Source: Candidatus Aminicenantes bacterium
GTDB lineage: Bacteria; Acidobacteriota; Aminicenantia; Aminicenantales; JAFGBC01
Assembly: GCA_963702005.1 (NCBI GenBank)
Contig: OY969696.1
Coordinates: 864,001-928,000 of the forward strand
Length of the DNA stretch: 64,000 nt
Direction of reading: 5' to 3'
Positions 788-10,238 of the stretch are shown piece by piece (the first letter of the stretch is position 1; each line of letters begins with the position of its first letter). Both the position numbers and the translations under genes were made by a program. The notes under the pieces were generated by a model that worked only from the letters and a program-made list of their open reading frames with translations, was not told the origin of the DNA and searched no databases.

Positions 788-2110
788 ATGTCGTTCCTGG
801 CTTCGGTTGACACCTCTTCTGTCCGATGCTATGGTTTGATTATCTCAGGACAAAAACGATTGCGATTCCCCTTTTTTCGCCGAAAGCGGACGGCGGCCCC
901 TTCCGACGCCGACGGGACTAACGTCCGGGAGATGACGCCTCGGGCTTCCCTCGAAGAGCTCAACGCTGCGGCCGATAAATACTACGCGCAGCGAGAGGAC
1001 GGCGTTTATTTTCTCGCCAAACCCCTGGCGGCGATCCATGAGACCCCCTTGATCCTCATCCAGTTCGGGAAGCTCCTCCAGGGACTCCAGCTCCTGCCGG
1101 ATCATCATGTCCTGGATTTCGGCGCGGGCTCCTGCTGGACGTCGCGCTGGATGACGCAGCTTGGCTGCAAGGTCTTCGCGCTCGACGTGTCTGCGGCCGC
1201 CCTGCGGATCGGGGCCCGGCTGTTCGAGGTCTTGCCCGTCGTCGGGGATCACCATCCTCCGGTCTTCCTGCCCTACGACGGCCGCACCATCCCTCTCGCC
1301 GACGAATCGGTCGACCGCATCTGCTGTTTCGATGCTTTCCATCATGTCGTCAACCCCGAAGAGGTGCTCCGAGAAATGGCCAGGGTCCTGAGGCCGGGGG
1401 GAATCGCCGGATTCGCCGAGCCGGGGCCCAACCATTCGCGCCTCCCCCAGTCTCTGGCCGAGATGGAGGATTTCAAGGTCATCGAGAACGACATCATCAT
1501 CGAACAGATAGGAGACATAGCTCGCCAAGCCGGTTTCAGCGACATGAAGGTTGCCCTTTTCGACGGCGGATTCCGGACCTTCTCGGTCGACACATTCAAC
1601 GATTTTGTCCACGGCAGCGAAGCAATGACCGCGACGATCGTCGCCGGCATGCGGGACTTTCTGCAGACATGCCGGATATTTTTCCTGGCCAAAGGCGAGC
1701 CGCCGGCGCCGGACAGCCGCACGCGAGTCGGCCTGACGGCGGACATCCGGATTGATATCGACAACCGCCGAGTGCGTCATGAGGCGGGAATGGTCAGCGG
1801 ACTGGCGCGCGTCAAGAATTCCAGCCCCTTGACCTGGCTGCCCGCGACGACGCGCGTCGGCGCCGTCCATTTGGGATGCCATCTTCTGAGCGCGGACGGG
1901 CAGATGATCTCTTATGATTTTTTCCGGACGAGCTTGACTCCGGGCATCGATCGGCCCCTGGCTCCGGGGGAAGAGGTCGAGGTCAGGCTCGAGATTCCCG
2001 TCCCCCCGCCCGGCGCCTGCGTCCTTGAGTTCGACATGGTCAGCGAGTGGGTCTGCTGGTTCTCGTTCAACGGATCGCCGACGGTGAAAGTGAACCTGGA
2101 GATCATTTAG
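788..2110 (+). CDS. Class I SAM-dependent methyltransferase with C-terminal Ig-like beta-sandwich
   Basis: VLDFGAGSCW motif I, FDAFHH, VLRPGG; C-terminal VHLGCH...LAPGEEVEV...FDMVSE...WF; true start probably downstream (~932). Confidence 0.8.
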   Translation: MSFLASVDTSSVRCYGLIISGQKRLRFPFFRRKRTAAPSDADGTNVREMTPRASLEELNAAADKYYAQREDGVYFLAKPLAAIHETPLILIQFGKLLQGLQLLPDHHVLDFGAGSCWTSRWMTQLGCKVFALDVSAAALRIGARLFEVLPVVGDHHPPVFLPYDGRTIPLADESVDRICCFDAFHHVVNPEEVLREMARVLRPGGIAGFAEPGPNHSRLPQSLAEMEDFKVIENDIIIEQIGDIARQAGFSDMKVALFDGGFRTFSVDTFNDFVHGSEAMTATIVAGMRDFLQTCRIFFLAKGEPPAPDSRTRVGLTADIRIDIDNRRVRHEAGMVSGLARVKNSSPLTWLPATTRVGAVHLGCHLLSADGQMISYDFFRTSLTPGIDRPLAPGEEVEVRLEIPVPPPGACVLEFDMVSEWVCWFSFNGSPTVKVNLEII

Positions 2111-7130: not shown

Positions 7131-7511
7131 TCAGTCTGGGCGGAAGACTTCGAGATCCAATTCCTTAATCATCCGGTAATGGCGGTCGTTGGCGGTCAGG
7201 AGGGATTCCCCGTGGACGATGGCCGTCGAGCAGATTAGGGCGTCGGGCAGGGTCAGGCTCTTGCTCAGGAAATGCCGCTCGATGTAGAAGATCGCTTTGG
7301 CCGAGATGTCTTCGCTGATATAGAGAAGCCGGGCGTTCCAGGCCCGGAACGCCTTCCTCAAGTCCTGAAGCTCCCGCTTGTTTCTCATTCCCTGGAGGAG
7401 TTCCGCGTAGGAAACGGCCGAAACGGCCAATGTCCGTCCCCTTTCGATGGCGGCGCGGGCCTTGCGGTTGCCCCGCATGTACCAGATCAGGACGTCGGTA
7501 TCGACGATCAT
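7131..7511 (-). CDS. vapC: VapC/PIN-domain toxin
   Basis: MIVDTDVLIW, SYAELLQG, PDALIC, LLTANDRHY acidic PIN motif; ATGA overlap with antitoxin. Confidence 0.9.
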   Translation of the reverse strand: MIVDTDVLIWYMRGNRKARAAIERGRTLAVSAVSYAELLQGMRNKRELQDLRKAFRAWNARLLYISEDISAKAIFYIERHFLSKSLTLPDALICSTAIVHGESLLTANDRHYRMIKELDLEVFRPD

Positions 7512-7750
7512 TCGAAGCGGCCTTTCCTGATCTTGCGAACGTACCCGTTGACGTCGGCGACGGCGGGATTGTCCTTCCACATCCCGAAAAGCCCGAGCTC
7601 CGCAGGAGCCGAGGGCGTTTCCCGCTCTTTGAAGGGAATGATTTTCGCCCTGGGCTGGCCCCGGAAGGTAATCACGACCTCTTCCCCCCGGGAGACGGCA
7701 TCCAGAATTTCCTTGGAGTGAAACCTCATGTCTTTGGCTGTCGCGCGCAT
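7508..7750 (-). CDS. Phd/YefM-family antitoxin
   Basis: MRATAKDMRFHSKEILDAVSRGEEVVITFRGQPRAKIIP; directly upstream of PIN toxin. Confidence 0.88.
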   Translation of the reverse strand: MRATAKDMRFHSKEILDAVSRGEEVVITFRGQPRAKIIPFKERETPSAPAELGLFGMWKDNPAVADVNGYVRKIRKGRFE

Positions 7751-7769
7751 AGTCGCTCGGCTTTCGATA

Positions 7770-7814
7770 ATAGTTGACATTATGAAATGTAAACTATCAA
7801 CAAGCCCTTGTCAA
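7770..7814 (-). promoter_or_regulatory. Sigma70 promoter with overlapping inverted-repeat operator for the TA operon
   Basis: TTGACA (7814-7809), 17 bp, TACATT (7791-7786); IR ATAGTTGACAT-N6-ATGTAAACTAT (7770-7797, 10/11 match). Confidence 0.75.
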
Positions 7815-8135
7815 GCTGTTTTTCGGGCGGATTCGCCCCGAATGGCCAGCGCATCGACGAAAACCTCCTTTCCCTCAAAGAGGACGCGCCGGCAGCCGGG
7901 CCGTTCTCAATGAAAATATTCGGCGGCGCCTGTCGGCGGCTGGAACCGCGGCGAGGAATATCAGGCTGCCGATGACGATTGGCCGGTCGGCTTTTTTAAA
8001 TGAAGCGAAAGAGTGCGGGCGACGCCCCGCCCGATTCCGACACGGCGGTTACGCGATTATTCATTTTCCTTGGGAACGGCGCAGATGAACAGGAGGGGCG
8101 GGTCCTTGGTTCTATTCCGGACTGGTGTTTCTCGT

Positions 8136-10166
8136 CTATAGTTTTTTCTTCCAGATTCCGGCGCTGTAGGTTCCGGCGAACAGGGTCCGGCTGGCGGCAT
8201 GAAATTCGAGATGGAGGATGTTTTTATCGATCAGCCCTTCGGAGATGTCGGTCCAGGTCAGGCCCCGGTCCTTGCTCTGAAATACGCCGCCGCTTCCCCC
8301 GCTAAAGATCTCGTTCGGGTTGCTTTTGTTGGCGATGATGGAATATGCGCCGTTCGGGCCCGAGCACTTGGTCCATGTTTGGCCGCCGTCCGCGCTCCGA
8401 TAAATTCCATCCCATGAGGTTCCGGCGTAGACGATGTTCGAGTTTCCCGGATCGACGGCGATGGACTTGATGTCCCTGTAGGTCCAGGGGAGCCGCGTCC
8501 AGGACGCGCCGCCGTTCGTGCTCTTGTAGATAGCCCCGACATTGTAGTCGGAGGTGTAGCCTCCCGCGAAAATAACGCTGGAGTTCGAGGGGTCGAAGGC
8601 CGCGGTGTTGATGGTGTAGGCCGTCTCGTTGGCGATTTTGGCCTGGGTCCAGGTATCACCCCCGTTCGAGGTGAGATACAGCCCGATATAATTCGGGTCG
8701 CTAGACGTGTTGTAAATCCACCCCGAGACCGCGATCCGGCTGGGATTCCGGGGGTCCCCGGCGATTCCGGTGACGTTCTTGTGGAGGATGTTCGTTTTCG
8801 TCTGGGCTCCGTCTACAGACCTGTAGACGTCGTCCTCGCCTCAACCCCCGGCCAGGAAAAAGACCGTCTTTGGGTTCGAAGGATGGACGACAAAACCCAG
8901 AATACTCTCACAGCGGTAAAAATCAGGGCACTTGGTCCAAGCCCCGCCGCCGTTCGCGGTCTTGAACAGGGCGTAGTTCGCGACCTCGGTGTAGATCGTC
9001 TGAGCGGAGGAGGGCGCGACTCCGAAGGAATCAGGCCTGGAGGCCCTGATCCCTGTGTGGCTCGCTTTCCAGAGGATCCCTGCGTTCTGGCTCTTGAAGA
9101 TCCCGGCCCAGGTGCCGCCGATGATCGTGTTGCCGTTCACCAGGAGCCGGGTGCCGTATCCGTAGATCCCGTTTCCGTAATGTGTCCAGGTCTTCCCGCC
9201 GTCCACGCTCTTCCAGCAGCCCCGATCGTTCTCCTCGTTGCCGCTGCCCAGGCCATAGAGCGTGCCGGGCTTGGCCTTATCCACTGCGAGGGCGCTCACG
9301 TTCAAGTAAAATGGTGAGGCTTGGTTCTGCCACGAGCCCCCTCCGTTCGTCGTCCTCGCGACTCCATTACTGTAAGCGACGAAGACGGAGTTCGGGTCTA
9401 TCGGATGGAGGACCAGTCCGTCGGCTCTGGGATTGATGACAGTGCCGGGATTGAAAACAGCGTCCTTGGTGATGTTCTTGTAGCTGCCGCCGCCGTTCGT
9501 GGATTTAAAAATCCCGACCTTCCCTTTGCCCGCTTTAGTATAGTTCCCGCAGAGGTAGATGATATTCGGATTCTTGGGATGGATTCCGATGTCGAGGATG
9601 TCGCCGTACTGGGCCGTCGGCTCGAGCTTGACGATCGTCCAGGTTTGGCCGCCGTTCGCGGACTTGGCGACGGCCGGGCAATAGGCCCACGTCGAAAAAT
9701 TTGTGACGAAATGTCCCGTGATGAAAAAAATCTTCGAGTTCGAGGGATGGATCGCCATGCGGCCGCTGTAGGCCTGAAAACCGAACGGGCAGGCGATGCT
9801 GTCGGGAAAAGTGACGCCCCGGTCCGAGGACTTGAGAATGGCATAGCTCGAGTAAGCGAAGACGACGTTGGCGTTTTTCGGGTCCGTCACTATATCATTG
9901 ATGCTGTTTTGGAGGATAAGGGTCCGCGTCCAGGTCAAACCGTTGTTCGAGGACTTGAAGAATTGAGAGGGATAGACGGCAGCGGAGGCGTAGATCTCGC
10001 TGGGATATTTTGGGTTCCGGGCCAGCCCTCGGACTTCTCCCCCGTAGGGGCCGATGGCCGTCCAGGCGGAGGCGCCGCCGGGCGCCCTGTCAGCCGGCGT
10101 CTCCCGCCCGCCGAAAAGCAGGGCGCAACACAGGACGATGATAGCGACGAGGACAATCCTCTTCAT
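8136..10166 (-). CDS. Secreted Asp-box/BNR-repeat beta-propeller protein, 676 aa if the in-frame TGA (8843-8841, codon 442) is read as selenocysteine
   Basis: GGAGG RBS, signal peptide MKRIVLVAIIVLCCALLFG; S-x-(N/D)-G-G-x-(T/S)-W repeats on both sides of TGA; frame stays open 234 codons to TAG 8138-8136 with no in-frame ATG/GTG/TTG. Confidence 0.8.
8810..8829 (-). promoter_or_regulatory. Candidate bacterial SECIS element
   Basis: mRNA UGA-GGCGAGGACGA-CGUCUACAGGUCUGUAGACG: perfect stem starting 11 nt after UGA, apex CAGGUCUG as in E. coli fdhF SECIS. Confidence 0.75.
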
Positions 10167-10209
10167 GGCCCTCCTCCCAGGCGGCTTTGAGGCAAATCCC
10201 TTTAGCCAA

Positions 10210-10238
10210 ATAATAGCGCCACAGGCCACGTGCGTCAA
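10210..10238 (-). promoter_or_regulatory. Sigma70-like promoter of the Asp-box gene
   Basis: TTGACG (10238-10233), 17 bp, TATTAT (10215-10210). Confidence 0.55.

Follow-up and report, generated by a model that had tools for sequence, protein, structure and literature searches.

A β-propeller gene with an in-frame TGA

The window, that is, the whole stretch of 64,000 nucleotides of Candidatus Aminicenantes DNA that was analyzed, carries on its minus strand a reading frame running from an ATG at 10166 to a TAG at 8136, with a single in-frame TGA at codon 442. The features of this locus are the following:

10210 to 10238, minus strand: sigma-70-like promoter match (10/12), from consensus matching only
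10170 to 10177, minus strand: Shine-Dalgarno-like sequence GGAGGAGG ahead of the ATG
8136 to 10166, minus strand: gene for a predicted 676-residue exported double 7-bladed Asp-box (BNR/Vps10-type) β-propeller, with TGA as codon 442 and TAG at the end (translation, Pfam PF15902 and PF15899, structural model, GH74-like fold)
10107 to 10166, minus strand: signal-peptide-like N terminus, MKR plus a hydrophobic stretch, read by eye
8910 to 8912, minus strand: Cys419 (FYRC motif), putative partner of Sec442 on the top face (homolog counts, strand register of the model)
8841 to 8843, minus strand: in-frame TGA, predicted Sec442 (translation, TGA at the equivalent site of the related loci L001 and L002, Cys in nine read-through homologs)
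8804 to 8835, minus strand: whole predicted SECIS, with a GA/GA internal loop and a lower stem of 3 to 4 bp (8835–8832 with 8807–8804), from folding
8810 to 8829, minus strand: upper stem-loop of the predicted SECIS, 8 bp, with the GGUC loop at 8821–8818, its apex equal to that of Escherichia coli fdhF and identical in L001
8136 to 8840, minus strand: 234 codons beyond the TGA, open, conserved (199/234 residues the same in L001), and devoid of ATG, GTG, and TTG
7864 to 7883, minus strand: terminator-like hairpin 3' of the gene, weak (four found against 3.5 expected in shuffles)

The translated product contains Sortilin-Vps10 (PF15902) and BNR (PF15899) repeats, and its structure, predicted from a 14-sequence alignment with a pLDDT of 87.4, matches the GH74 tandem propellers along its length (Foldseek E value of 1e-29 and TM score of 0.64), a VIA structural alignment with 6p2m giving a Z of 29.8 and an rmsd of 5.8 over 589 residues. 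The model places residue 442 between the strands 435–440 and 445–450, in the second propeller, within loop 2-3 of its second blade, so a stop at this mid-blade position would leave the second propeller with fewer than two blades. The Asp-box of this same blade (8790–8800, minus strand) is without the usual Trp, and close homologs have Lys or Arg instead.

Regarding the genomic context, the neighbors of the propeller gene are YdjC, a peptidase S58, and a PIN/Phd pair, with no redox genes among them. The latter pair, composed of a Phd/YefM-like antitoxin and a PIN-domain protein (7131–7780, minus strand), separates the propeller gene from that of the peptidase S58; in L001 both flanking genes are present with no Phd/YefM-PIN pair between them.

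Geometry and codon usage of the hairpin after the UGA

Directly 3' of the in-frame UGA and inside the coding region, which is the placement of a bacterial SECIS, the minus strand presents the TGA itself (8843–8841), an 11-nt spacer, and then a perfect Watson-Crick stem of 8 bp closed by a GGUC tetraloop (8829–8810). The original prediction had described this arrangement of UGA, 11 nt, and perfect stem correctly, and of its estimate of 8 to 9 bp the lower figure stands, since a ninth pair would demand a 2-nt loop. The GGC/GCC pairing that it had placed under the stem is not the one predicted; instead, the lower stem would be formed by GGAC (nt 9–12) with nt 37–40, beneath a GA/GA internal loop. 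A GCC to GTT change in L001 completes this predicted lower stem, with a folding energy of −17.8 kcal/mol, compared with −15.6 kcal/mol in the window.

A comparison with the SECIS of E. coli fdhF (NC_000913.3, b4079) bears out what the original prediction had stated about the two elements. Both have the 11-nt spacer, the 8-nt apex CAGGUCUG, the GGUC loop, and the location in a coding region, whereas the loop of the window element begins 19 nt after the UGA and that of fdhF one nucleotide nearer, at 18 nt. Moreover, the stem of the window is perfect over 8 bp, where fdhF has a bulged U, and it stands on a short lower stem under the GA/GA loop; the proteins served are unrelated. The bulged U17 that marks the E. 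coli fdhF-type subtype is therefore missing, and the window hairpin would be fdhF-like at its apex while belonging to another subtype.

The hairpin spans the in-frame codons AGG TCT GTA, which are indeed unusual for this DNA, as had been proposed: over 21 genes of the window (8192 codons), AGG accounts for 51/569 Arg codons (9%), TCT for 18/453 Ser codons (4%), and GTA for 11/647 Val codons (1.7%). When the peptide is kept fixed and synonymous codons are drawn at random, a perfect stem of at least 8 bp appears in 28/20000 draws with the codon usage of the window and in 63/20000 draws with the usage of the propeller gene itself. The free energy is less striking, being matched in 206/4000 draws (window usage) and 120/4000 draws (gene usage), with z values of −2.0 to −2.6. 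Since these z values are modest and the true E. coli fdhF element reaches an MFE z-score of only −0.91, energy was kept out of the main evidence. The sequence CAGGTCTG, located 14 to 22 nt beyond a TGA, occurs for only 1/1698 TGA triplets of the window. A scan with the consensus SECIS rule was dropped as a discriminator because it is too loose, with 1163/1698 window TGAs passing our own version of the rule, which has no energy filter; meeting the consensus is thus weak evidence alone.

The V-Y-x-x-V-D motif encoded here is partly self-complementary on its own, and the five other Asp-box motifs of the propeller gene form stems of 3 to 5 bp with commoner codons. In the one pairwise comparison with L001, synonymous changes are found in 0/11 hairpin codons and in 133/479 codons elsewhere, and in this same comparison rare codons are kept in 3/3 cases in the hairpin and in 6/37 elsewhere. 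Because only one pair of sequences is compared, and because at four other places in the propeller gene codon identity extends over longer runs, the conservation of the hairpin codons is taken as supporting and not as decisive.

Conservation of the site in relatives and homologs

The genome scan gave 280 confirmed loci, 80 of them among the matches listed, and among these 80 only L001 and L002 are family members covering the site, the rest being generic BNR proteins. All three members with DNA (the window, L001, and L002) have TGA at the site, so the UGA is conserved in other genomes, as it is in selenoprotein genes, and the reading frame is conserved on both sides of it. L001, also from a Ca. 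Aminicenantes, is 76% identical and shares flanking genes with the window; the 37 nt from its UGA onward are identical to those of the window, and the upper stem is the same. L002 is 28% identical, and its GGUC hairpin, of 6 bp, comes 34 nt after the UGA, 15 nt further out than in the window, being located at 1170–1220 (plus strand) behind a second possible hairpin and with unremarkable folding (z of −1.18). Regarding compensatory changes, the lower-stem change of L001 is compatible with the predicted structure and L002 presents its hairpin at another spacing, in a comparison of few sequences of which the window and L001 elements are near-identical.

The 234 codons that follow the TGA contain no start codon, the sole case among the nine same-frame TGA-split ORF pairs of the window. 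Against L001, this part shows changes distributed as 22/17/52 by codon position, and judged from such sequence comparison, the second half is under purifying selection.

In the protein databases, the family was sampled with a set of 69 proteins, composed of 13 close matches among the 120 listed and of 58/150 rows spanning at least 350 profile positions, two of them shared, with the multi-repeat proteins in the other rows excluded. Pairwise identity in the family goes from 24 to 79%, with a median of 35%. In this set, the sequence of 30/69 homologs stops with a Gly at the site (in the exact column for 28, within 2 columns for two), and the other 39 read through, with Cys in eight, Ser in five, Asn in four, and Trp in none; Gly and Thr also occur. 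A further 21 top matches, hand-picked among the 120 listed, include eight that end at the equivalent Gly, and Cys is found in 1/13 of the others. In total, 38/90 homologs examined end at the Gly that precedes the site, a count made on protein sequences, and 9/52 read-through homologs carry Cys at the aligned position, to be compared with a background Cys of ~1%. Cys-containing homologs are likewise a mark of selenoproteins. Also, the 24/24 short C-terminal fragments picked among the 120 listed matches begin at scattered internal positions (452–545), which is what gene callers meeting a recoded codon would yield. However, neither a Cys nor a stop occupies the site in 31/39 read-through homologs; much of the family can thus do without a chalcogen there, and the fold serves other purposes as well.

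A quick tree of 72 rows, midpoint-drawn, shows the stop state to be scattered, requiring 21 changes, at least 14 of them forced by well-supported branches, with 67/500 shuffles giving a number as low. In pairs of leaves formed by one stop and one read-through protein, the shorter branch belongs to the stop form in 8/9 cases, by our own count on this quick tree. This pattern fits an ancestral Sec followed by repeated loss, as far as the protein sequences can tell.

Some members appear to coexist in one genome. Apparently on the contig of the propeller gene are P0392, a full-length paralog in which 419 and 442 are both Ser, and P0282, a C-terminal fragment that suggests a second split (Sec) paralog. 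P0015, P0276, and P0394, apparently on one contig, comprise a stop-ending form together with the C-terminal fragment belonging to it, and a Cys form of full length, which suggests Sec and Cys paralogs within one genome. As for other stops, those within the alignments of L015 and L043 looked unrelated. A BNR propeller gene of a Nitrospirae MAG (L023, 3621–3623, plus strand) has an in-frame TGA elsewhere, three residues past a Cys (CxxU-like), with 1640 open codons behind it; a search for a consensus SECIS hairpin found none there, and this TGA could be a second Sec site or belong to a broken gene.

The original prediction that a SECIS is encoded here in rare codons, with selection acting on the RNA structure, is thus supported by the conserved stop, the Cys homologs, the lack of a downstream start, the 0/11 synonymous changes, and the retention of the rare codons. 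Based on these sequence comparisons, the hairpin is very probably a bacterial SECIS that recodes the UGA to Sec. By analogy with known systems, SelB on the G-U loop would bring Sec-tRNA to the UGA located 19 nt upstream of the loop, and the ribosome would make one exported protein of 676 residues with Sec at 442, rather than halting at 441.

A candidate Sec442–Cys419 site

Among the conserved polar residues, the strongest enrichment in stop forms is that of R418 and C419. Cys419 is present in 23/30 stop-ending and 7/39 read-through homologs (p of 1.6e-6, uncorrected for kinship), its usual replacement being Ser, and the association between Cys419 and a stop or Cys at 442 (28/5/13/26) has a p of 9e-6, also uncorrected for kinship. 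The association is not strict: Cys419 is missing in 7/33 stop forms, and Ser419 occurs in 6/8 Cys forms. In the model, strands 421–427 and 435–440 adjoin in the blade, which by strand register would put 419 opposite 442. Then, Sec442 would most likely lie next to Cys419 across this strand pair, in loop 2-3 on the top face. In Asp-box glycosidases, the catalytic residues are in loop 2-3 on the top face as well (PMC2716378, in excerpt).

If Sec is inserted, the chances are about even, judging from the homologs, that Sec442 and Cys419 constitute a selenol/thiol redox site outside the cytoplasm. In such a site, Sec442 would act as the nucleophile and Cys419 as an optional resolving residue, with the ligand perhaps lodged between the two propellers. 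Again given Sec, it is a serious possibility, though not the one that we favor, that the pair forms a structural Se-S cross-link or binds a soft metal, and is not a catalytic redox center: the protein is exported, it has other scattered and partly co-occurring Cys (206/413 and 192/338), and neither its fold nor its neighbors are of a redox kind. A purely structural cross-link, however, fails to explain that 442 is often retained with Ser419, a pattern better suited to a redox nucleophile whose resolving Cys is optional, and the site is in a loop that this fold uses for function. The partly conserved Cys columns outside the site are 163, 192, 206, 317, 338, and 413, and the two co-occurring pairs among them may be disulfides or reflect shared descent.

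Alternative readings of the UGA

It had been suggested that the geometry of the hairpin calls for a lineage-specific SelB. This is unlikely, although the bulged U is absent, the loop lies one nucleotide beyond the position in fdhF, and U17 is stated to be required in the E. coli-type element (PMC8659212, in excerpt). According to the available text of PMC13188914, the bacterial consensus SECIS comprises a stem of 4 to 16 bp, a spacing of 16 to 37 nt, a loop of 3 to 9 nt with G in its first two positions, and an MFE of at most −7.5, a bulge not being required; the window hairpin, with 8 bp, 19 nt, a loop of 4 nt beginning with GG, and −15.6 kcal/mol, agrees with every one of these features. Moreover, the hinge of SelB is described as tolerating differences in spacing, and stems of 6 to 8 bp with a G ~20 nt from the UGA are described as general (PMC4605307, in excerpt); within the same propeller family, L002 has another spacing. 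Because the consensus spans this geometry and the hinge tolerates the spacing, a variant SelB is both unsupported and unneeded, and the predicted SECIS is an ordinary one.

Far less probable is that the SECIS-dependent read-through inserts Cys and not Sec through a system of the tRNA-ReC/SelC* type. Such tRNAs decode UGA as Cys before a SECIS in several uncultured lineages (PMC13582414, in excerpt), and Sec and Cys are indistinguishable by sequence evidence. However, in the available part of that source, these tRNAs are found alongside canonical tRNA-Sec, and the single Aminicenantia row, corresponding to one MAG, lists tRNA-Sec and SelD, with SelA and SelB unlisted; also, the stop is spread across a very diverse family. 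None of selA, selB, selC, and selD was seen in the 64-kb window, where ARAGORN gave zero tRNA and Rfam zero matches.

Just as improbable is that the TGA is a true stop, due to a conserved split gene, a pseudogene, or an assembly error, with the hairpin as a by-product of the V-Y-R-S-V-D motif. The codons for V-Y and V-D are partly complementary, the MFE is equalled by 3 to 5% of synonymous draws, and gene callers annotate two pieces. Against this, 38 homologs end at one shared glycine, and Cys homologs exist; a sequencing error was likewise rejected. Moreover, the second half has neither a start codon nor a signal peptide and appears to be under purifying selection, the stop would fall mid-blade, and a stem of 8 bp arises in just 0.14 to 0.3% of draws, the five other Asp-box motifs giving 3 to 5 bp.

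A downstream hairpin can promote the read-through of stop codons. Read-through without Sec, by this leaky route or by a genome-wide reassignment of UGA to Trp or Gly, is nevertheless the least likely reading, in spite of the Gly, Ser, Asn, and Thr found at the site in homologs: reassignment is rejected because TGA terminates the majority of long ORFs in the window. Moreover, Trp is found at the site in none of the homologs, the most frequent residue there is Cys (8/39), and the apex copies a SelB-binding motif.

A probable selenoprotein family and its relation to known systems

Recoding of the UGA to Sec by an ordinary SECIS, as preferred here, would define a probable new family of exported β-propeller selenoproteins that are currently annotated as broken genes. 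The fuller reading, which we hold with modest confidence, is that of an old, paralog-rich family of exported double β-propeller selenoproteins in Aminicenantes-like anaerobes, with a fold absent from the selenoprotein catalog and a cross-strand Sec/Cys pair 23 residues apart that would serve as an extracytoplasmic site for redox chemistry or covalent capture; Sec would be the ancestral state, with many later losses, and databases would contain dozens of members as truncated "Ycf48-like" proteins. The original prediction centered on the hairpin and missed the main point, the identity of the recoded protein, where the value of the locus lies.

If this is true, Sec on the ligand face of an exported, glycosidase-like propeller would bring to Sec chemistry a fold and a geometry that are both new, and natural Sec, Cys, Ser, and null variants of the family already exist for comparison. 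At least 38 database proteins that are cut at the site would have their annotation corrected, and a compact, near-perfect natural SECIS would let the needs of SelB be probed beyond the E. coli model.

Thioredoxin-like and metal-cofactor redox enzymes make up the majority of the bacterial selenoproteins known (PMC13188914, in excerpt). Table 1 of this 2026 review catalogs 119 families of prokaryotic selenoproteins, and in the part of it available, no β-propeller, BNR, or Vps10 entry appears. No mention of propeller, BNR, Vps10, WD40, or Aminicenantes was found in PMC13188914, PMC13326102, and PMC12013277, and the supplements of PMC12013277 and PMC5330540 have no matching entry. Also, no selenoprotein model of NCBIfam (June 2026) matches any of the 10/10 family proteins tested. 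No prior description of a propeller selenoprotein was found in the literature searched, which was mostly without subscription papers, and an earlier mention is possible.

Regarding the fold, the likeness to the GH74 xyloglucanases (2cn2/2cn3, 6p2m, 5fkq) consists in the tandem 7+7 Asp-box propellers, which the window protein has as well. However, identity is 18 to 22%, and the predicted Sec and Cys of the window protein are in the next blade. Moreover, the first catalytic Asp, recognized because 2cn2 and 2cn3 differ there (D/A), falls on a variable, non-acidic column, and the second catalytic site, placed by analogy, has Asp in at most 9/72 family rows. Membership in GH74 was rejected because these two catalytic aspartates (loop 2-3, first blade of each propeller) are not conserved; the product would then be a tandem 7+7 Asp-box β-propeller devoid of them. 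The BNR-repeat proteins Ycf48, Vps10, and F510_1955 share the Asp-box repeats and are the origin of the automatic names, but the matches are at the level of the repeat, the score of the query being 160 for NF045728, where the cutoff is 175, and lying far under the cutoff for Ycf48.

With respect to the consensus bacterial SECIS, no difference was found in the available text of PMC13188914, the consensus itself being loose. Finally, the protein resembles the catalogued prokaryotic selenoproteins in its single predicted Sec, its Cys homologs, the downstream SECIS, and a GxU/GGU-like context, and it differs from them in that the predicted Sec and its putative partner Cys are 23 residues apart and not in a CxxU arrangement.
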